Below are positions 9,493 through 63,674 of a stretch of 64,000 nt of DNA, piece by piece (position 1 is the first letter of the stretch; every line of letters starts with the position of its first letter). The position numbers and the translations under genes were made by a program. The stretch covers positions 50,585 to 114,584 of the forward strand of contig JBFMDH010000017.1 in NCBI GenBank assembly GCA_040754075.1, given 5' to 3'. Source of the DNA: Acidobacteriota bacterium. Its GTDB lineage: Bacteria; Acidobacteriota; Blastocatellia; UBA7656. The notes under the pieces are model-generated. The model did no database searches and was not told the DNA's origin. It saw only the letters and a list, made by a program, of their open reading frames with translations.

Positions 9493-9531
9493 GAGCGTAC
9501 GGAACAAACGGAAATAACCGAACAGACGGAA
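9493..9531. repeat. half or decayed copy of the CGGAACAAA/CGGAAATAA tandem-unit element
   Basis: gagcgtacggaacaaacggaaataaccgaacagacggaag closely matches the left arms at 23050 and 58493. The expected right arm (about 9545-9580) is T-rich but degenerate. Confidence 0.65.
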
Positions 9532-9956
9532 GTTGAAAAAAAGTTTTCGATTTACTGTGTTTTGTATTTGAACTGCATACATCAAGAATTGGTCTTCAAC
9601 AAATGGTGTGCAAATGATGCACATTGTGTTAAACTGCGGCGTCGTTAAAACTGTGTGAAAGTAATTTGAAACCGCACAGTAATAACTGACGTAAGCGAAT
9701 TTGCAGTCAACATTCAACAGGGTTTCCGATACATAAGGTTGCTGCAAAATTGATTCAACAAAAAAACTGGTGAATCTGATGAAGTCAATGGAAATGTTTT
9801 GATTCCAACCGAATAGTTCTCGCCCAAGAAATTTTTTTCCAATTATAAGTCTTCGTGTGTTCAGGCGACGAGCAGGCACAGCGTTTTTCTCTCTCGCGTG
9901 AGCCTTTCAACACGATTTTTCATACGCTCACAGGCGTTTATCAAAGCGAGGTTTAA

Positions 9957-11408: not shown

Positions 11409-11555
11409 CGGTGAAGAAGAAGAAGGGGAGAAAGGGAGATAGGGAGAAGGGGAGATTTTTATCAACCCCTGAGCCGCTTTTACTTAACACTATGCGGTTT
11501 TAGAAAACAAAAAAGCTGCGGAAGTTCTTCTATCTCCCTATCTCCCTTTCTTCTG
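11409..11555. repeat. inverted-repeat element with GGGAGA-type purine tandem-unit arms; it fills the gap between two convergent stop codons
   Basis: Left arm is gaagaaggggagaaagggagatagggagaaggggaga (about 11416-11455). Right arm is cttctatctccctatctccctttcttc (11527-11553), the imperfect reverse complement. The element spans exactly from the MATE stop (11408) to the isomerase stop (11556). Confidence 0.8.
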
Positions 11556-12428
11556 TTACACGTCGCACAGCGCGACGGCTTCGCGAAGTGAAGTGAGTGG
11601 GTCGCGTTTGGGGACGAATTCATGGGCGACGTAGCCTTTGAATCCTAAATCGGCGATGGCTTTGCAGACGGTCGCCCAGTTGAGTTCCTGGGTATTGTCC
11701 AGTTCGTTGCGTCCCGGCACACCGCCCGTATGAAAATGCGCGATGTAATCAATGTTCTGGCGAATCGTGCGGATGATGTCGCCTTCCATGATTTGCATAT
11801 GATAAATGTCATAGAGCAGTTTCACACGCGGCGAAGCGACCGCTTTAATCACTTCAACGCCGAATGGCGTATAGTCGCCCTGATAGCCTTTGTGGTCAAC
11901 TTTGCTGTTTAACAGTTCGACGCAAATCGTCACCCCTTCGTTTTCAGCAACTTTTTTGACGCGGTTCAATCCAATGATGCAGTTTTCTTTCGCCTGTTCA
12001 TCGCTTTGATTTTGACGATTGCCGAAAAAGGTGATGACGTTTGGCACTTTCATTTTGGCGGCGCGCGGAATCGTCGCTTCAAAATTTTTGACGATGGCAT
12101 CGTGATTGGCTTTGTCGTTCAAGGCTTTCGGAATCGTACCGCCACCGGCGTATCCCATCGAACAAATCAAGCCGTATTTGGCAATCGGTGCCCACTCTTT
12201 CTCTTCGAGTAAATCAATTGCCGTGAGTCCTATGTCGGCAACCGCGCGGGCAAAATCATCAAGCGGAATTTTGCCGTAACACCAACGCGAAACCGATTGT
12301 TTGAGTCTGCCGTTTTTCACGATGCGCTGCATCGCAAATGCCGACGAGGTGAAATCTTTTAGTATCATGGCTGAAAATGTTGTCGCGCCGATTCCTTTAA
12401 TTAAATTACGTCTGCTGATGATATTCAT
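11556..12428 (-). CDS. hydroxypyruvate-isomerase-like TIM-barrel protein (xylose isomerase-like fold) with Tat signal
   Basis: ORF trimmed to ATG 12428 (MNIISRRNLIKGIGATTFSA), which carries a twin-arginine-type signal. Motifs VELLNSKVDHKGYQGD and HFHTGGVPGRNELD. The upstream ORF extension is translation of the GTGATGA repeat. Confidence 0.75.
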   Translation of the reverse strand: MNIISRRNLIKGIGATTFSAMILKDFTSSAFAMQRIVKNGRLKQSVSRWCYGKIPLDDFARAVADIGLTAIDLLEEKEWAPIAKYGLICSMGYAGGGTIPKALNDKANHDAIVKNFEATIPRAAKMKVPNVITFFGNRQNQSDEQAKENCIIGLNRVKKVAENEGVTICVELLNSKVDHKGYQGDYTPFGVEVIKAVASPRVKLLYDIYHMQIMEGDIIRTIRQNIDYIAHFHTGGVPGRNELDNTQELNWATVCKAIADLGFKGYVAHEFVPKRDPLTSLREAVALCDV

Positions 12429-12440
12429 AATGCCTCTGAT

Positions 12441-12530
12441 AAAAAAGTGATGAGTGATGAGTAATGAGTAATGAGCGATAGCTGAAACTTTCCAACTCAT
12501 CACACATCACTCATTACTCATCACTTTTTA
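12441..12530. repeat. hairpin element with GTGATGA/GTAATGA heptamer arms
   Basis: aaaaagtgatgagtgatgagtaatgagtaatgag (12441-12475) pairs with ctcatcacacatcactcattactcatcacttttt (12496-12530). It lies 12 nt upstream of start codon 12428. Confidence 0.85.
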
Positions 12531-12610: not shown

Positions 12611-12634
12611 ATCCCTGAATCCTGAATCCTAATC
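12611..12634. repeat. short tandem heptamer array AATCCTG (reverse complement CAGGATT, i.e. GGATTCA phase-shifted)
   Basis: atccctgaatcctgaatcctaatc was read directly. The same heptamer is repeated four times inside priA (59893-59921). Confidence 0.7.
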
Positions 12635-17214: not shown

Positions 17215-18252
17215 ATGAATGTGGCTCTCAAAACCAAATTGTTAATCATTGCGCTCATCGTCGTTTTTTTCACCGCTTGTGTTTGCGGACCGCAGGAACA
17301 AGGGATTATCAAAAAAGAAGGTCCCATCCGCATCGGGCTTTCATTTGATACGCTCAAAGAAGAACGCTGGCAACACGACCGCGATTTATTTGTCGCGCGC
17401 GCCAAAGAACTCGGCGCTGAAGTGATCTATCTTTCCGCCGACAGCAACGATGATGTGCAAAACAAACAGGTCGAAAATCTGCTCACTCAGGGCATCGATG
17501 TGTTGGTCATCGTGCCGCATAACGCAGAAGTTTCGGGCGCAGCGGTCAATTCGGCAAAAGCGCAAGGCGTTCCGGTTCTCAGCTATGACCGGTTGGTGAA
17601 AGAATCGCAGCCCGATTTATATGTGTCGTTTGACAACATCAAAGTCGGCGAGTTGCAGGCGAAATATCTTTTAGACCGCGCCCCCAGGGGAAATTATATT
17701 TTGATTGGCGGCGCGCCAACCGACAATAACGCGAAACTGTTTCGCGAAGGGCAAATGAATATTCTCAACCCGGCAATTGCGCGCGGCGACGTTAAAATCG
17801 TCACCGACCAGTGGGCAAGGGATTGGCAACCCAACGAAGCCCTGAAACACACGGAAAACGCCTTAACCCAAGCCAACAACAATGTCGTTGCGGTGGTCGC
17901 TTCAAATGACGGCACGGCGGGCGGCGCGATTCAGGCTTTGCAGGAACAACGCCTCACCGGAAAAGTTCTGGTATCAGGGCAGGACGCCGAACTTGCGGCA
18001 TTGCAACGCATCGTTGCCGGTACACAATCGATGACGGTTTATAAACCGATTGCCAAACTTGCAGTGCGCGCTGCCGAAGCCGCCGTCGCCCTTGCGCGTC
18101 GCGAAACTCTCGATACCAACGGCTTGGTCAATAACGGCAAAATCGATGTGCCGTCGATTTTGCTCGAACCTATCATTGTTGATAAATCGAACCTTGATAG
18201 CACGGTGATTGCCGATGGCTATCAAAAACGCGAAGAAATTTATAAGAAATAG
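17215..18252 (+). CDS. xylF: D-xylose ABC transporter substrate-binding lipoprotein
   Basis: Clear similarity from memory to E. coli XylF (IGLSFDTLKEERWQHDRDLFVARAKELGAEV...VPVLSYDRL). Lipobox FFTAC. ATG 17215 lies inside ORF 17197..18252. Confidence 0.85.
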   Translation: MNVALKTKLLIIALIVVFFTACVCGPQEQGIIKKEGPIRIGLSFDTLKEERWQHDRDLFVARAKELGAEVIYLSADSNDDVQNKQVENLLTQGIDVLVIVPHNAEVSGAAVNSAKAQGVPVLSYDRLVKESQPDLYVSFDNIKVGELQAKYLLDRAPRGNYILIGGAPTDNNAKLFREGQMNILNPAIARGDVKIVTDQWARDWQPNEALKHTENALTQANNNVVAVVASNDGTAGGAIQALQEQRLTGKVLVSGQDAELAALQRIVAGTQSMTVYKPIAKLAVRAAEAAVALARRETLDTNGLVNNGKIDVPSILLEPIIVDKSNLDSTVIADGYQKREEIYKK

Positions 18253-18366
18253 TGCTTTGTACTTTGTGCTTTGTACTTCGTTTTTAGGTTACTTGTTGAA
18301 TATTAAGACGAAGAGCAAAGCCCTACACAGGGAATACAAAGCACAAAGTACAAAGCACAAAGTACA
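18252..18366. repeat. hairpin element with CTTTGTR heptamer arms filling the xylF-xylG intercistronic gap
   Basis: gtgctttgtactttgtgctttgtacttcgt (18252-18281) pairs with tacaaagcacaaagtacaaagcac (18335-18358). It starts at the last base of the xylF stop codon and ends 6 nt before the xylG ATG. Confidence 0.85.
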
Positions 18367-18371
18367 AATCT

Positions 18372-19891: not shown

Positions 19892-20056
19892 GCGGCTCTG
19901 CCGCTTTGATGTGCGGGAAGCCTGTGACTTCCCGAAATCGGCTCCTGTAGCTGGTTTTGAGGCGGTGCCTTAAATTGGCGGCGTAGCCGCGACAAGCATC
20001 AGACAATAGTTGACGGTGAGGCTGAGCCTCACCGCACATCAAAGCGGCAGAGCCGC
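19892..20056. mobile_element. MITE-like element with perfect 25-bp terminal inverted repeats, located between xylG and xylH
   Basis: gcggctctgccgctttgatgtgcgg (19892-19916) is the exact reverse complement of ccgcacatcaaagcggcagagccgc (20032-20056). Internal sub-hairpins are gggaag..cttccc (about 19915-19933) and ggtgaggc..gcctcacc (about 20015-20033). It has no coding capacity and no target-site duplication was seen. Confidence 0.6.
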
Positions 20057-20120
20057 AGAACAGACAAATACTCACTATCACTTGAAGCAGTCGTTAAATA
20101 AACAGCAAACAGAGCAAACT

Positions 20121-21287
20121 ATGAGCGAATCAACACAAGCACTCGAAAAGAAAAGCGGTTTAAGTGAAATCCTCGGCAATGTTGACTGGCGCACTTACAC
20201 GATGGTCTTTGCGCTTATCATCATCTGGATAATTTTTGCCTATACAACCAATGGCGTTTTTTTAGAAGCCCGCAATTTCTCTAATCTCATGCGACAGGCG
20301 ACTATCACCGGCGTCTTGGCGGTCGGCATGTTGATGGTGATTTTGCCGGGACATATTGATTTGTCCATCGGTTCGGTCGCAGGGCTTGCCGGAGGGCTTG
20401 CGGCGATTGCTCAGACCTGGGGCAATTACGGATTCGTTACCTCGCTGTTAATCGGCATCGGCACGGGGTTGGTGATTGGTTTCATTCATGGACTCTTGGT
20501 CGCTTACGGAAACATCCCGGCATTCATCGTCACCCTCGGAGGGTTGCTCGCCTGGCGCGGCGTGATTAAAGGCATCAGCAAAGGCAACACCATCCCTGTG
20601 AGTCTCGAACAGTTCAAACAAATCGGCCAATGCTACTTGATGAAACCCGTCGGACTCGCGCTTGCGGGCGCGGCGGTGCTGGCGATTATCTTCTTTGCTC
20701 TGCGGCGTCATCAATCACAAAAACGTTACGGGCTGGAACAGAGTGCGGCGAAACTCGCGGTGCAGATTCTTTTGCCTGCGGCGCTTGCGGTCGGTTTCGT
20801 TTACGCCTTAAACAAGTATGCGGGGGTGCCGGTGCCGGTGATGATTCTCGTGGTCGTCGCTTTGCTTGGCGCATTCATCACGCAAAACACCACGTTCGGG
20901 CGATACCTCTATGCGATAGGCGGCAACCCCGAAGCGGCGCGGCTTTCGGGCATCAATATCAAGCACCATTTGCTTGCGGTCTTTTCAATCATGGGGGCGC
21001 TGGCGGGACTCGGCGGCATCATCTACACCGCGCGGGTCGGCAGCGCCGCGCCCGATGCCGGACGCCTTCTTGAACTCGATGCCATCGCGGCTTGCGTTAT
21101 CGGCGGAACGAGTTTGATGGGCGGACGCGGCACCGTATTCGGCGCAATTTTAGGCGCAATTTTTATGGCGAGCCTCGATAACGGCATGTCGCTGAAAAAC
21201 TTTGAAGACTTCACACAGGACATCGTCAAAGGCGTGATTTTAGTTGCCGCTGTCGGTCTCGATATGATTGGTCGCAAGCGCAGTTAA
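20121..21287 (+). CDS. xylH: xylose ABC transporter permease
   Basis: ORF trimmed to ATG 20121, because the upstream part of the ORF is translation of the MITE-like element. About 10-12 TM segments and a typical sugar-ABC permease C-terminus (GGTSLMGGRGTVFGAILGAIFM). Confidence 0.85.
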   Translation: MSESTQALEKKSGLSEILGNVDWRTYTMVFALIIIWIIFAYTTNGVFLEARNFSNLMRQATITGVLAVGMLMVILPGHIDLSIGSVAGLAGGLAAIAQTWGNYGFVTSLLIGIGTGLVIGFIHGLLVAYGNIPAFIVTLGGLLAWRGVIKGISKGNTIPVSLEQFKQIGQCYLMKPVGLALAGAAVLAIIFFALRRHQSQKRYGLEQSAAKLAVQILLPAALAVGFVYALNKYAGVPVPVMILVVVALLGAFITQNTTFGRYLYAIGGNPEAARLSGINIKHHLLAVFSIMGALAGLGGIIYTARVGSAAPDAGRLLELDAIAACVIGGTSLMGGRGTVFGAILGAIFMASLDNGMSLKNFEDFTQDIVKGVILVAAVGLDMIGRKRS

Positions 21288-23032: not shown

Positions 23033-23049
23033 TCTAAAGATAAAAACCA

Positions 23050-23204
23050 GAGTACGGAACAAACGGAAATAACGGAACAAACGGAAAATTCAAAACGCAT
23101 TTGCAAAGCTTTCGTCTGTTAGGTTGCATTTGCAATGTTTCCATTTGCTTCGTGGCATTTCAAAAGCTTCCATCTGTTTGGTTATTTCCGTTTGTTCCGT
23201 ACTC
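23050..23204. repeat. inverted-repeat element with CGGAACAAA/CGGAAATAA 9-mer arms, located between convergent genes
   Basis: Left arm is gagtacggaacaaacggaaataacggaacaaacggaa (23050-23086). Right arm is ttccatctgtttggttatttccgtttgttccgtactc (23168-23204), followed by tttttt. There is an internal ~25-nt direct duplication (catttgcaaagctttcgtctgtt / catttcaaaagcttccatctgtt). Confidence 0.85.
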
Positions 23205-23256
23205 TTTTTTCGCGCTTCATCCACGCGAGAATTAAACGATGGAATACAACTTCGCG

Positions 23257-53742: not shown

Positions 53743-53806
53743 GGATTGTAGGGATGAAACGAATCCGGCGAATGAAATTAATCCGCCCAATCCGTCCAAT
53801 CCGAAG
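53743..53806. repeat. tandem-unit element of the CGGATnnA / AATCCGCC family
   Basis: ggattgtagggatgaaacgaatccggcgaatgaaattaatccgcccaatccgtccaatccgaag. The 3' half is about 24/29 identical to 59075-59103. Confidence 0.65.
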
Positions 53807-58427: not shown

Positions 58428-58492
58428 CGGCAGATTTTGACATCACGATTATCACGACGCCCCGAATTGCCTTTCATCAAAGCAAAAAGAGA

Positions 58493-58590
58493 ATTCGGAA
58501 CAAACGGAAATAACTAAACAAACGGCAGCAGCTAAAGATTTTTTTTCCGTCTGTTCGGTATTTCCTTGTTGTGTACGCTTCCTGTTTGGA
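58493..58590. repeat. inverted-repeat element of the CGGAACAAA/CGGAAATAA family, located between convergent genes
   Basis: Left arm is attcggaacaaacggaaataactaaacaaacgg (58493-58525). Right arm is ccgtctgttcggtatttccttgttgtgtacgcttcctgtttgg (58547-58590), an imperfect complement. Confidence 0.75.
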
Positions 58591-58598
58591 TTTCTCTT

Positions 58599-58877
58599 TT
58601 ATTCGACAACTACGCCGCGCCAGAATGCCACGTGGTCTTTGATTTCAGCGGCGGCGTCTTTCGGTTGCGGGTAATACCACGCGGCATCTTTGTTGACTTC
58701 GCCGTTCACCACGACATTGTAATAACTCGCTTCGCCTTTCCAGGGACAGGTGCTGTGCGTGTTGCTCGGTTGGAAATATTCTTTATTGATGGATTCAGCA
58801 GGAAAATAATGATTGCCTTCGACCACCACCGTGTCATCGCTTTCGGCTAACGTTACACCATTCCATTTCGCTTTCAT
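58599..58877 (-). CDS. DUF427-domain protein
   Basis: 92 aa. AESDDTVVVEGNHYFP and CPWKGEASYY motifs are characteristic of DUF427. Confidence 0.7.
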   Translation of the reverse strand: MKAKWNGVTLAESDDTVVVEGNHYFPAESINKEYFQPSNTHSTCPWKGEASYYNVVVNGEVNKDAAWYYPQPKDAAAEIKDHVAFWRGVVVE

Positions 58878-59036
58878 TGCCCTACCTCTTTAAATAATTC
58901 TTTCAATCAATAAATAGGTTTACCGATTTGGCGGTAAAATGCAAAACGGTTTTCTGCCCGCAACCCTTTGCCTTTCCGCCTTGAAGATTTCTCCGTAAAA
59001 GTTAAATGTCCGTCATTGGATGGTAAAAATTATTCT

Positions 59037-59100
59037 CGGATGAGGCGGATGAAACGGATAAAACGGATTCAAGAAAATCCGCCCAATCTGCCGAATCCCA
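59037..59100. repeat. tandem-unit element of the CGGATnnA / AATCCGCC family
   Basis: cggatgaggcggatgaaacggataaaacggattcaagaaaatccgcccaatctgccgaatccca. ggcggat pairs with atccgcc, and cggatt pairs with aatccg. Confidence 0.65.
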
Positions 59101-59222
59101 AGTTAAAATTTCGCCTTTAATCGTCGCGGATTTTACTTAACGAGAAACAACTCACTTGATGAAATGAATCGTCAATGTGTGTCACTCGTCACCTTGCAAG
59201 GCATCGTGTACAATGCACGGCG

Positions 59223-61904
59223 ATGTTTGCAGAAGTCGCTGTCCCGGTTTTCATTCGTCAAACCTTTACCTATCGCCTGCCCGGTGATATGGCGCGGCGC
59301 GCCCAAATCGGCTGTCGCGTCGTGGTTCCCTTCAATAAAAAATTACTCACCGGATTCATCGTCGCTTTGCCCGAAAATCTCGAAGGCGAATATCCCACAA
59401 TGGAAATTCGCGATGTCGAAGAGTTGATTGACGAAACCCCGGTTATCGAACGCGAGATGCTCGCGCTCACCCGTTGGATGAGCGATTATTACTATGCCGC
59501 GTGGGGCGAATGCATTCGCGCTGCACTGCCCGCTGGCGCAGCGGTTGCTACCGAACAGATGCTCACCATCACCGATGCCGGACGCAGCGAACTCGCCAAT
59601 TTTTCCGGCGGCTTCGCGTGGTCTTCAACCAAACATCAAGCCCTTGAACTCCTATTCAATCTCGGCACCTTGAATGTCAAAGAACTCGAACGTCAACTGC
59701 CGAAAACCCAGGTCGCCTCCCTGGTTCGCACGCTGCGTCACGCGGGACTCGTAAGCATTACGCAACGCGCCGGCGAGTCCAGACTGAAACCGAAAATGCA
59801 GAATGCGGTACGATTAAAAAGTCTGGAGTCTGGAGTCCGGTGTCCGGTGTCGGAAGAGAGCAGGCAGCAGGCAGCAGGCAGTCGGCAGTTTGAGGATTCA
59901 GGATTCAGGATTCAGGATTCAGCACCTACTGATTTAATCAATGGCAATGGTCATCAGACGAATGATGCACCGGTTTCAAGTGAACCGACGACGCCAAAAT
60001 CAAACGACGACTCAGCGAAAAAAGGTCGCAAGCGGACTCCAGACTCCAGACTCCAGACTCCAGACTCGACGGCGAAGCCGATAACCGAACAACAACAACG
60101 GGTCATCGCTTTGCTTGAAGAGACCGACGAAGCGATTGCCCTCAGTGAACTCTTGGAACAGGCACAGGTTTCTTCATCAGTTGTTCGCACATTGGAAAAA
60201 CGCGGCATCGTCGAGGTCTTTGCCCGCGAAGTGCGCCGCGACCCGCTCGCCCATATTAAAAGTCAACAACTCTCGCTCGTCACGCTTAACGATGAACAGC
60301 AAGAGGCGCTTGATAAGATTCTCAAACAGATTCACGCGCGCCAGTATGGAACTTTTCTTTTGCACGGCGTCACCGGCAGCGGCAAAACCGAAATCTACAT
60401 TCGCGCTATGCTTGAAGCCACTCGTCAAGGACTCGGGGCATTGATGCTGATTCCTGAGATTGCATTGACGCCGATGTTTTCACGAAGACTGCGCGCGCAT
60501 TTTGGCGATGCGGTTGCCATTTTGCATTCGAGTTTGTCTGATGGCGAACGCATGGATGAATGGCGGCGCATTAAAGAAGGCGAAGCCCGCGTCGTCATCG
60601 GCACGCGCTCGGCGGTCTTTGCGCCGATTGAAAACCTGGGCGTCATCATCATCGACGAAGAACACGAAACCACTTACAAACAGGACGAATCGCCGCGCTA
60701 TCACGGGCGCGACACCGCGATAATGCGCGCTGTGCATAACCAGGCTGTCGTGGTCATTGGTTCGGCAACCCCTTCGCTTGAATCGTTTCATAACGCGCAC
60801 ATCGGCAAATACACCTACATTCGCTTGCAGACGCGCTATGGCAATCGTCCGCTTGCCGATGTGCAGACCGTCGATATGCGCGAGGTATTTAAAAAATACG
60901 GCAAGCAGCAGACCTTTTCCGATGAACTCAAACAGGCGATTAGTGAAACCTTTGAACGCAAAGAGCAGGCGATTATTTTGCTCAATCGTCGCGGCTATTC
61001 ATCGTTTGCGTTGTGCCGCACTTGTGGCGAAGCCTTGAAATGTATCAACTGTGATGTGACGCTCACCTATCATCGCTACAACACCAGTTTGATTTGTCAT
61101 TATTGCAATTATATGCGACCGGCGCCGAAAACCTGTCCGCATTGCGACGGGCAATACATTCAATATGTCGGCGAAGGCACAGAGCAAATCGAAGCCAAAT
61201 TGAAAGAGATGTTTCCTGAAATGAGCATCGCGCGCGTAGACCGCGACACCACGCGCAAACGCGGCAGCCTCGAACATCTGCTCATGGAATTTTCTTCGGG
61301 GGCGATTGATCTGCTGGTCGGCACGCAGATACTCGCCAAAGGTCATGACTTTCATAATGTGACTTTGGTTGGGGTGATTTCGGTTGATGTCGGTTTGTCC
61401 TTGCCGGATTTTCGTTCGGCGGAACGGACGTTTCAATTGCTCACCCAGGTGGCAGGTCGCGCCGGTCGCGGAAGCCTTCCGGGTCGCGTGATTATTCAAA
61501 CTTACCATCCCGAAAATTACGCCCTGCAATGCGCCAAGGCGCAGGATTACGAAGAGTTTTATTTGCGCGAAATCAGTTTTCGCCGGTCGATGCACTACCC
61601 GCCGTTTATGGCGCTCATAAATATCAACGTGCGCGATAAGGATTTTGAGCGCGCCAACGCGGCGGCGATGGATTTATCGCGGGAGTTGCGCGAAGTCGCA
61701 AAAGACGGAAGCCTGAGAATTTTAGGTCCCGCGCCCGCGCCGATTGCCCGCATCAAAGGCGACCACCGCTTTCAGATTTTAATCAAAGCCCGCAGCCGCA
61801 AACGCGCCCGCGAAGCTTTGGATTTCGCCATGCATCGGGTGATAAATGCCGGTCACAACCCGCGCTGCTTTTCCGTCGAAGTCGACCCCATCAGTTTGAT
61901 GTGA
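59223..61904 (+). CDS. priA: primosomal protein N' (PriA helicase) carrying an ~83-codon low-complexity insertion
   Basis: Start ATG 59223 ([20 protein letters not shown], typical PriA N-terminus). Walker [14 protein letters not shown] box IIIDEEHE, and a Cys-rich zinc region [20 protein letters not shown]...CHYCNY...CPHCDG. Confidence 0.9.
59820..60068. repeat. composite tandem-heptamer inverted-repeat element inserted in frame within priA
   Basis: Left arm is agtctggagtctggagtccggtgtccggtgtcgg (59820-59853). Then come gcaggca x3 + gtcggca (about 59860-59887) and ggattca x4 (59893-59921). Right arm is cggactccagactccagactccagactccagactcg (60033-60068), the reverse complement of the left arm. 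The span is 249 nt, or 83 codons, by my boundaries. Confidence 0.85.
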
Positions 61905-62528: not shown

Positions 62529-63674
62529 ATGAATTGTCCGAAATGCAGCGCAATGGTTCCCGATGGTTATAAATTCTGCGTCAATTGCGGCAACCCGATG
62601 GCGACAACGACTGCGCCGGTTGGTTCGCAACCGCCGGCAACGCCACCCGCAGAGCAACCTCCGCAAGCGAGCTATCCGCAACCGCCTTATGACCCGGCGG
62701 CTTATCAACAACAGCAAGGTCAATACGGCTATCCACCGCAAGGCGGACAACAGGGCTACGACCCGAACCAGTATGGCTACGGGCAACAGGGCTATGGACA
62801 ACAGGGCGGACAGCAGGGTTACGGGCAACAAGGATATGACCCGGCGGCTTATCAACAGCAGCAACAACAGTATCAGCAACAGGGTTACGGACAACAAGGC
62901 AGTCAGCAAGGAAGCGCTCACGGCATTCACATTGACGCCGATGGTCGCGGCAGCGGACGCGGTTACAGTTACGAGATATTGCATCAACCGGCGTTTTCGC
63001 TTGCGGTCGTACAACTCCAAGCCGAACAATCCATCCTCGCCGAAGCGGGCGCGATGGTTTCCATGTCCGCCAATGTCGAATTGCAATCGCAGATGAAAGG
63101 CGGAATGATGGGCGCATTAAAACGCATGGTCGGCGGTGAATCGGCATTCGTTTCAACCTTCACCGCAAGAGGCGGCCCCGGCGAAGTGGCGTTTGCACCG
63201 GGCGCACCCGGCGACATCGCGGCGCTGGAACTCAACAATCAGGCGTTTTATGTGCAGTCGAGTTCTTACATGGCTGGCGATGCCAGTTTGACCGTCGACA
63301 CCAAATGGGGCGGCGCAAAATCGTTTTTCGGCGGCGAAGGGTTGTTTGTTTTGCAGGTCTATGGAACGGGACTTTTGCTGGTCTCTTCATACGGCGCGAT
63401 TCATCGCAAACGGCTTGCGCCCGGCGAACGTTACGTCGTTGACACCGGACATCTGGTCGCCTGGGAAGGCACAACGCAATATCAACTGAGAAAAGCGGCG
63501 GCGGGATTTTTCCGAAGCCTGGTGAGCGGCGAAGGCATCGTCGCGGAATTTATGGGACCCGGCGAAATCTTGATTCAAACGCGGAACCTGGCGGCGCTCG
63601 CAGGCATTTTGAAACCCTTCTTCCCGTCACAAGGCGGCGGTGGCGGCGGCTTCAATATGAGTTTCGGTTCATAG
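62529..63674 (+). CDS. zinc-ribbon + Gln/Gly/Tyr-rich low-complexity region + AIM24 (DUF124/TIGR00266) domain protein
   Basis: AAGGAGA RBS. The N-terminal zinc ribbon is CPKCSAMVPDGYKFCVNCG. About 110 aa of QQGYGQQG-type repeats follow, then an AIM24-like core (YEILHQPAFSLAVVQL...AEAGAMVSM...GEGLFVLQVYGTG...). Confidence 0.75.
   Translation: MNCPKCSAMVPDGYKFCVNCGNPMATTTAPVGSQPPATPPAEQPPQASYPQPPYDPAAYQQQQGQYGYPPQGGQQGYDPNQYGYGQQGYGQQGGQQGYGQQGYDPAAYQQQQQQYQQQGYGQQGSQQGSAHGIHIDADGRGSGRGYSYEILHQPAFSLAVVQLQAEQSILAEAGAMVSMSANVELQSQMKGGMMGALKRMVGGESAFVSTFTARGGPGEVAFAPGAPGDIAALELNNQAFYVQSSSYMAGDASLTVDTKWGGAKSFFGGEGLFVLQVYGTGLLLVSSYGAIHRKRLAPGERYVVDTGHLVAWEGTTQYQLRKAAAGFFRSLVSGEGIVAEFMGPGEILIQTRNLAALAGILKPFFPSQGGGGGGFNMSFGS

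Follow-up and report, generated by a model that had tools for sequence, protein, structure and literature searches.

A tandem-heptamer palindrome carried in frame between winged-helix modules of PriA in Blastocatellia

The closest functional analogue of the element analysed in this study is the Rickettsia palindromic element (RPE), a palindromic repeat of ca. 100-150 bp that occurs in frame in unrelated housekeeping genes and is translated as a tolerated extra peptide (PMC10969869). Heptanucleotide repeats, represented by the cyanobacterial STRR and the GGGAATC repeats of Xanthomonas and Nostoc, consist of tandem 7-nt units, are a few units long, and are mostly intergenic, sometimes lying as inverted pairs (PMC4692102, PMC4679880); published accounts place them in non-coding DNA and find them under-represented in coding regions (PMC4692102). 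Among the long simple sequence repeats of bacteria, units of seven nucleotides are the most frequent, which has been attributed to polymerase slippage (PMC4679880, PMC4692102, citing Mrazek 2007). REP/REPIN sequences are composed of two inverted short repeats that form a hairpin; they are dispersed, long-lived in lineages, and mobilised by RAYT without target-site duplications (PMC3116915, PMC3337134). Here, we describe a cassette in priA, the gene for primosomal protein N', in a 64-kb stretch of DNA (hereafter, the window; ca. 50% G+C), on which our genome-level statements rest, from a soil acidobacterium of the Blastocatellia (Acidobacteriota). We interpret this cassette, with moderate confidence, as a self-perpetuating repeat-armed palindrome that sits in a permissive linker of PriA, evolves by slippage and arm-to-arm template switching, and is tolerated by the host. 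The literature on heptamer repeats, REPIN/RAYT, or tandem-repeat-armed hairpins in Acidobacteria yielded nothing specific, within an incomplete coverage of that literature.

The cassette occupies positions 59820-60068 on the forward strand (249 nt, 83 codons, residues 216-298 of a 909-aa open reading frame [ORF]) and is flanked by TTAAAA on the left and CGACGG on the right. An initial annotation made from the sequence had described a repeat element with inverted arms here, and its coordinates, sequence, and translation were all confirmed. It had also distinguished four separate arrays; heptamer arrays are indeed present, but they constitute one continuous 15-unit tract and one inverted arm. 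The left tract (59820-59924, forward strand, 105 nt) keeps a single continuous 7-nt register through units in the order AGTCTGG (twice), AGTCCGG, TGTCCGG, TGTCGGA, AGAGAGC, AGGCAGC (twice), AGGCAGT, CGGCAGT, TTGAGGA, TTCAGGA (three times), and TTCAGCA. Adjacent units show one or two base differences, and the lag-7 identity over the 105 nt was 0.80, a value as high being found in 0 of 10000 shuffles. The beginning of this tract, made of AGTCTGG, AGTCCGG, and TGTCCGG units (59820-59851, forward strand), is the left arm of the inverted repeat and makes a long stem in both RNA and DNA folds. It is separated from the right arm by a non-repetitive spacer of 108 nt (59925-60032, forward strand; lag-7 identity 0.29), whose encoded peptide ends in a basic patch and whose reading is open in the priA frame only. 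The right arm (60033-60067, forward strand; lag-7 identity 0.93) consists of five units, CGGACTC followed by four copies of CAGACTC, which are the reverse complement of AGTCTGG units.

Tandem Repeats Finder (TRF) reported period-7 rows for AGTCTGG (2.6 copies, 59820-59837), GTCCGGT (2.4 copies, 59835-59851), AGCAGGC (3.3 copies, 59859-59881), AGGATTC (4.3 copies, 59893-59922), and GACTCCA (4.7 copies, 60035-60067). The arms at 59820-59851 and 60035-60066 are 88% complementary over 32 nt, with a perfect core at 59820-59839 and 60033-60052 (20 nt, 100%), and the outer arms pair over 27-32 nt. This inverted repeat ranks among the five longest in the window when arms at most 300 nt apart are considered. 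Every heptamer dimer was far commoner than in shuffles; for example, AGTCTGGAGTCTGG (at most two mismatches) gave 6 matches against 0.13 expected.

Like RPEs, the priA cassette is palindromic, in frame, and translated. It differs in that RPEs are multi-copy with a conserved sequence and peptide, whereas only one copy of the AGTCTGG type was seen in the 64 kb, its spacer is unconserved, and its arms are tandem heptamers that change between species at one fixed site. The head-to-tail 7-nt units (TRF period 7) are shared with the STRR and GGGAATC repeats; however, the cassette is an inverted pair within a protein-coding gene, is kept in frame across a clade, belongs to Acidobacteriota, and has other unit sequences. 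STRR heptamers have reportedly been found inside a functional RNase P RNA gene, as Vioque is said to have described in 1997 (cited in PMC2858038).

The host gene (59175-61904, forward strand) was called as a 909-aa ORF, and its true start is probably the ATG at 59223 (MFAEVAV...), which would give a protein of 893 aa, since the homologues begin at MFAEVAV. The product is a complete PriA, with Pfam 3'BD (PF17764), DEAD/ResIII (PF00270/PF04851), Helicase_C (PF00271), Zn_ribbon_PriA (PF18319), and PriA_C (PF18074) all above cut-offs, and its best matches were all from Blastocatellia or Acidobacteriota metagenome-assembled genomes (MAGs). It also matched the solved structures of K. pneumoniae and E. 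coli PriA (4NL4 and 6DGD; E about 1e-141 to 4e-141), and the phmmer alignment to 4NL4 begins at residue 317 of the 893-aa protein, within the second of two winged-helix modules. These modules were delimited in an AlphaFold2 model run on a 24-sequence alignment, in which the mean predicted local distance difference test (pLDDT) score was 66.8. A winged-helix-like module (59628-59816, forward strand; residues ca. 152-214 of the 909-aa ORF; helices and strands H152-E214) lies directly upstream of the insert, and a second module (60087-60227, forward strand; residues ca. 305-351; H305-E351) aligns with the winged-helix region of the solved PriA structures. Their Pfam matches were weak, namely TrmB at residues 141-191 of the 893-aa protein for the first and the MarR and IclR helix-turn-helix families at residues 287-332 for the second. 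The insertion site is therefore modelled as lying between two winged-helix modules, one extra and one canonical, and not directly before the helicase core as had been stated initially. Even with the insert discounted, Blastocatellia PriA exceeds E. coli PriA by ca. 86 residues (59550-59816, residues ca. 120-214), and it appears to contain an additional winged-helix-like module ahead of the canonical one.

In the same 24-sequence alignment, short-linker PriA proteins of Blastocatellia (ca. 818 aa) have 8-16 residues between QNAVRL and KPL(T/N)EQQQRV versus 89 in the window protein, and the distance from QNAVRL to RTLEKR is 57-62 aa in short-linker species versus 135 aa in the window. Since these short-linker proteins are without the segment, it is, on this comparison, an insertion with a net gain of ca. 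75 codons. The 83 added codons given in the initial annotation hold as the span of the cassette, but the net gain relative to short-linker orthologues is ca. 73-78. The proposal that relatives would not have the segment applies to these distant orthologues and fails for close ones, all of which (78-86% identity) carry an insert. None of the close orthologues has a homologous, non-repetitive segment of equal length; their inserts are repeat-armed and variable in length.

Insert-site DNA was compared between the window and 23 Blastocatellia loci, and most of the compared sequences are metagenome assemblies. On a neighbour-joining, midpoint-rooted PriA tree from which the insert columns were left out, the clade that includes the window has 15 members, each with an insert of 36-89 residues at the identical position. 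Judged by this distribution, the insertion is old; it reached the site in an ancestor of this clade, or earlier still, and has remained since. More than 13 assemblies, independent and from different projects, have the same architecture at the same codon position, and the segment is therefore neither private to the window genome nor an assembly artefact.

The 249-nt insert of the window is open in the priA frame only, with one stop in the +1 frame and four stops in the +2 frame. Across 12 orthologous inserts (757 codons), no stop was present in the priA frame, compared with 20 and 40 stops in the other frames and ca. 35 expected by chance. Because the priA frame is free of stops while the other frames carry them, the segment is almost certainly transcribed and translated with priA, presumably as a disordered stretch of ca. 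75-83 residues. Residues 218-299 were modelled by AlphaFold2 without secondary structure at a pLDDT of 25-29, which together with the stop-free codons bears out the disordered linker that the initial annotation had offered as one alternative. Its other alternative, removal at the nucleic-acid level, found no support: no Rfam match was obtained at E <= 1 in 59600-60300, no Pfam domain was detected in residues 200-282, where the sequence is of low complexity, and the frame is kept open although removal would not require that. An intron or intein removed before the protein functions, or an artefact of assembly, to which repeats and palindromes are prone, can thus be practically dismissed, considering the conserved frame, the absence of an intron family match and of an intein or other domain in the insert, and the recurrence of the architecture at one codon position among the independent assemblies. 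The open frame across the heptamers, which had been called notable, is in itself ordinary, since 69% of all heptamers are stop-free in all three frames when tandem. What needs explanation is the total length and the stop-free spacer rather than the open heptamer arrays.

The insert length is a multiple of three in 12 of 13 sequences. In the remaining sequence, L006 (MAG SOY_29_metabat_494, JANMSG010000021.1, 3616-3914), the frame changes inside the right heptamer arm: QNAVRL reads in frame 0, RTLEKR in frame 2. A misassembled repeat, a genuine slippage mutant, or a pseudogene could account for this. In contingency loci, too, the repeat units inside the ORF are not triplets, and the frame moves when their number changes (PMC8262952, PMC12721329). 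As the gain or loss of one 7-nt unit would likewise shift the frame of priA, and one MAG is frameshifted inside the right arm, priA might be regarded as a phase-variable gene toggled by single-unit changes. We consider this highly improbable: the tracts are short (2.6-4.7 identical units), 12 of the 13 assemblies are in frame, the lone frameshift may reflect misassembly of a short-read MAG, and there is no obvious benefit in reversibly silencing a replication-restart helicase. Besides, the tracts of contingency loci are longer, uninterrupted, variable between isolates, and located in surface or restriction-modification genes, unlike the short tracts of this housekeeping helicase.

Most Blastocatellia PriA proteins have 36-89 extra residues at the insert site, including those of lineages with no recognisable repeats there (L002, L005, L014, L029, P0017, and P0018), and a Lys/Arg-rich patch lies ahead of the right arm in most orthologues. 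These features would fit an insert that is kept for the benefit of PriA, which would gain a long and flexible connection, basic patch included, between its two winged-helix modules; that the insert arose from repeats would then be incidental. This explanation appears very unlikely, however, since several lineages manage with 8-16 residues, the length and sequence of the insert are unconstrained, and the peptides encoded by the arms are wholly different between arm types; the complementarity of the arms would also be left unexplained. We saw no evidence of a role for PriA beyond that of a spacer.

A hairpin is present in most insert-bearing lineages, and at least six different heptamers occur among the arms. 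AGTCTGG arms of 27-36 nt, enclosing loops of 121-186 nt, were found in the window, L026, and L027, and a decayed form of this type in L028, while L001 has TGTCCGG-like units on both arms. GGTCGGT or GGTCAGT arms are present in L025, L006, and L084 and are decayed in L085; AGCCGGN arms are present in L012, and 28-nt TCCCTTG/CAAGGGA arms in L083. Outside these, L024, which belongs to a different PriA clade, carries TCCGAAG/GACTTCG arms of 30 nt, and L003 and L011, of a third clade, carry a short palindrome of the GAAATCT type. Loop length across the orthologues ranges from 3 to 186 nt. When every left arm was scored against every right arm, the mean complementarity was 17 for an arm and its own partner, 14.8 for arms of the same type from other species, and 6.1, which is near chance, for arms of different types. 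Since complementarity is high within a sequence or type and near chance between types, both arms evidently change sequence together.

The window insert folded much better than shuffles, with z = -4.9 for RNA and z = -4.7 for DNA. Of the 11 orthologues that bear repeats, 8 had fold z values of -3 to -10; in sequences without arrays the values were ca. 0. Across the orthologues, the sense and antisense strands folded equally well, and the long-range stems were nearly all Watson-Crick (0-3 G-U of 20-36 pairs). Strand-symmetric, near-perfect pairing is the expected product of copying one arm from the other, and these sequence data thus point to a DNA-level process upholding the pairing; selection on mRNA structure is less likely because it usually leaves G-U intermediates and a sense-strand bias. 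Among the candidates that were examined, mRNA-specific pairing was rejected as there was no asymmetry in G-U content or in sense-versus-antisense folding, and a conserved short stem in array-less orthologues was rejected with z ca. 0.

The same hairpins could alternatively be a functional cis-element in the coding sequence, such as a double-stranded RNA target of RNase III that sets PriA levels, a pause site for transcription or replication, or a structure to which PriA or some other protein binds, with selection for pairing keeping the arms complementary. At 27-36 bp, the perfect stems are of sufficient length for RNase III. Such a function would accord with the retention of a hairpin with covarying arms across at least six heptamer types, the 86% conservation of AGTCTGG arms where synonymous sites are saturated, the strong folding of 8 of the 11 repeat-bearing orthologues, and the restriction of such arrays to a single gene, priA, in ca. 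290 kb. We nevertheless judge it unlikely. The pairing is strand-symmetric and almost purely Watson-Crick, while selection acting on the mRNA would tolerate G-U pairs and favour the sense strand; the arms have decayed in L001, L028, and L085 (z of -1.1 to -1.5 in those measured); the loops are anything from 3 to 186 nt long; and the element is missing from L008-L010, L013, and L031, where priA is otherwise intact. No Rfam match and no terminator-like site spoke for it either: the scan of the whole window at Rfam gathering thresholds returned one tRNA and nothing else, and the promoter and terminator scan of 59000-60400 returned no terminator-like site and a single promoter-like site at chance level.

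We favour instead the self-perpetuating palindrome, which would work as follows. The element consists of two inverted tandem-heptamer arrays around a non-repetitive spacer, between the extra and the canonical winged-helix modules. Slipped-strand mispairing inside the arrays would gain, lose, and homogenise units, and intramolecular template switching or arm-to-arm conversion (quasipalindrome correction) would carry the changes across to the other arm, preserving Watson-Crick complementarity. Host selection on priA would purge only those variants that shift the frame or create a stop. The element would belong to a class of hairpins with arms of tandem 7-, 8-, or 9-nt repeats that elsewhere in this genome are intergenic. 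Mutation by template switching at quasipalindromes is well established and improves the match between imperfect inverted repeats (PMC7202029). It would yield exactly the strand-symmetric Watson-Crick covariation of arms. It is known, however, from point-mutation hotspots of E. coli and yeast and not from the upkeep of a long-lived element, and its action in priA is inferred.

The main arm types are connected by a short mutational path. Single substitutions link AGTCTGG, AGTCCGG, and TGTCCGG, as well as GGTCGGT and GGTCAGT, and TGTCCGG is separated from GGTCGGT by ca. two changes or by a one-base slip of register. In the window and L025, single tracts contain a mixture of units. The arm types are interleaved on the PriA tree; this could result from lineage-specific homogenisation of an ancestrally mixed array, a reading that is based on the short path between the main types and the coexistence of mixed units in tracts.

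Hairpins of this construction are not confined to priA. The window contains at least seven others with tandem-repeat arms, at 1274-1318 (7-mer), 11411-11561 (8-mer), 12442-12529 (7-mer, with A5 and T5 at the flanks), 18252-18368 (7-mer), 23044-23210 (9-mer, 43-nt arms followed by a T-run), 58485-58600 (9-mer), and 59037-59100 (9-mer, immediately upstream of priA). These seven hairpins are intergenic and mostly at gene ends, and some have A-run/T-run flanks that resemble bidirectional terminators. An 18-nt unit, ACGGAACAA + ACGGAAATA, forms arms at three loci (9497-9533, 23044-23096 with 23168-23210, and 58485-58530), and CGGATGAAA/AATCCGCCC arms occur at two (53750-53806 and 59037-59100). The intergenic GGATTCA array reported in the initial annotation near 12611-12634 was also confirmed (12616-12629, minus strand); it has ca. 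three units and no inverted partner, and its unit is common to positions 12614 and 59893. Small dispersed repeat families thus exist in the window, which suggests mobility or sequence-specific generation.

This raises the possibility that the cassette is a non-autonomous mobile element, resembling a MITE (a miniature transposable element with inverted repeats) or REPIN, with heptamer arrays as its terminal inverted repeats, and that different families of such elements have repeatedly inserted or supplanted one another at a hotspot in priA. The sharing of units between separate loci of the window (ACGGAACAA/ACGGAAATA, CGGATGAAA/AATCCGCCC, and GGATTCA), the GGTCAGT-like arrays that are also intergenic in L024 and L002, the interleaving of arm types on the PriA tree, and the whole-cassette differences between proteins 95-96% identical outside the insert would all be expected in that case. 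No target-site duplication was found at the window cassette or at the orthologous insert sites compared, and these sites have no conserved terminal motif. The former result is compatible with hairpin-dependent Y1/HUH transposition (PMC3116915, PMC6006769), but both argue against a mobile element, and the inverted arms of a MITE would be accompanied by a target-site duplication. Furthermore, AGTCTGG arrays are confined to priA, none being present elsewhere in the window or in the 86 loci fetched; spacers of the same type are no more conserved than neutral divergence would give; a stepwise mutational path joins the main arm types; and no transposase turned up within the 64 kb, although no search aimed at one was made. 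Compared with REPINs, the cassette shares the hairpin architecture, and the other repeat-armed hairpins of the window form families of two to three copies. However, REPINs are extragenic, their arms are not tandem, and most have a GTAG or CGTC tag (PMC3733652), while the priA cassette is intragenic and single and its tag is inconsistent: on inspection by eye, the window (minus strand) and L026 have CGTC beside the right arm, and L027 does not. On balance, mobility of this kind seems a doubtful explanation of the cassette.

Several observations weigh against the self-perpetuating palindrome and have to be set beside the covariation. The first is the slow change of some arms. Flanking priA of the window is ca. 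74% identical to that of L026, L027, or L001, with only ca. 50% identity at third codon positions, and despite this the left arm is 86% identical among the four. Either drift slowed by conversion or selection on the arm sequence can explain this identity; by analogy with palindrome arms, divergence can be slowed by conversion among repeat units or from arm to arm. The second is the abrupt change of others. With the insert left aside, P0007 (AGTCTGG type) shares 96.3% identity with P0009/L083 (TCCCTTG type), and L026 shares 95.4% with P0006/L084, yet the arms of the latter pair differ and their spacers are unrelated. Because such near-identical pairs differ in their cassettes, some changes look like replacement of the whole cassette and not drift, and the TCCCTTG case looks like a true replacement. 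With periodic sequence masked, the spacers in general were barely alignable (z <= 2.9), except for those of L026 and L027, which are clearly homologous (z 3.8-5.6). Thirdly, the strong heptamer arrays in ca. 290 kb of Blastocatellia DNA, of which ORFs of 150 aa or longer cover 89%, were, priA apart, all intergenic or in doubtful ORFs. Since priA is the sole clearly real coding region with arrays, it is insufficient to say that any permissive linker will do. Finally, slippage and template switching are both inferred here and not observed. As to why the element resides in priA, our preferred reading is historical contingency, that is, one old insertion that has since been self-perpetuating.

A more far-reaching idea, which we put forward as improbable, is that Blastocatellia carry an undescribed dispersed class of hairpins with tandem 7-9-nt arms, renewed by a Y1/HUH-type enzyme or by dedicated template switching. 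One lineage of this class would have stayed inside priA through the radiation of the clade, swapping arm families in frame, possibly because the hairpin is a cis-signal, e.g. one coupling fork-stalling structures to the expression of the restart helicase.

Arrays similar to those of the cassette were also encountered in other genomes. The ORFs retrieved with the synthetic peptide (SLESGVW)5(TPDSRLQ)5 came from many phyla and were all short, hypothetical, and without domains; these matches are spurious calls over similar arrays and are uninformative on the invasion of coding regions. Two of the sequences, P0142 and P0192, are spurious ORFs over AGTCTGG-type hairpins on long metagenome contigs and have a common N-terminal stretch, VTASLVIIPAV.STRQTGRSLESGV, which suggests that the same conserved non-coding feature lies ahead of such hairpins in other genomes. 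In L083, AGTCTNG-like inverted arrays lie at 1020-1230, just upstream of a priA gene whose insert arms are TCCCTTG, and the P0009 gene call is over-extended through these arrays (N-terminal KILDSPDSQDSLESPDS).

Some further repeats of the window are of other kinds. Two adjoining, unrelated octamer arrays at 2760-2826, GTGAAGCA (2.8 copies) and TTCTCCCC (4.6 copies), lie between two minus-strand ORFs and are not mutually complementary. A 43-nt inverted repeat at 19892-20056 (81% complementary) has no tandem structure and overlaps the start of the ORF at 20010-21287. At 62529-63674, a protein with a Zn-ribbon and an AIM24 domain contains a long Q/G/Y-rich linker derived from coding repeats of 12 and 15 nt; these units are multiples of three, an ordinary contrast to the heptamers, and the gene is downstream of priA in several related loci.

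The priA cassette extends known kinds of repeat, namely the in-frame palindromic repeat and the heptamer simple sequence repeat, and is unusual but not a new kind. Its most interesting features are its clade-wide persistence at one site, the joint turnover of its arms through at least six heptamers, and the symmetry of pairing at the DNA level. It indicates that a structure-forming, slippage-prone repeat can live long inside an important gene of DNA replication, where the sole visible constraint imposed by the host is to remain in frame and free of stops. The PriA proteins of Blastocatellia thus offer a natural experiment on the maintenance of palindromes in bacterial DNA, in which arm-to-arm correction can be set against selection, on the birth of disordered linkers from non-coding repeat DNA, and on the tolerance of the PriA architecture between its winged-helix modules. 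The cassette also draws attention to a class of acidobacterial hairpins whose arms are tandem repeats.

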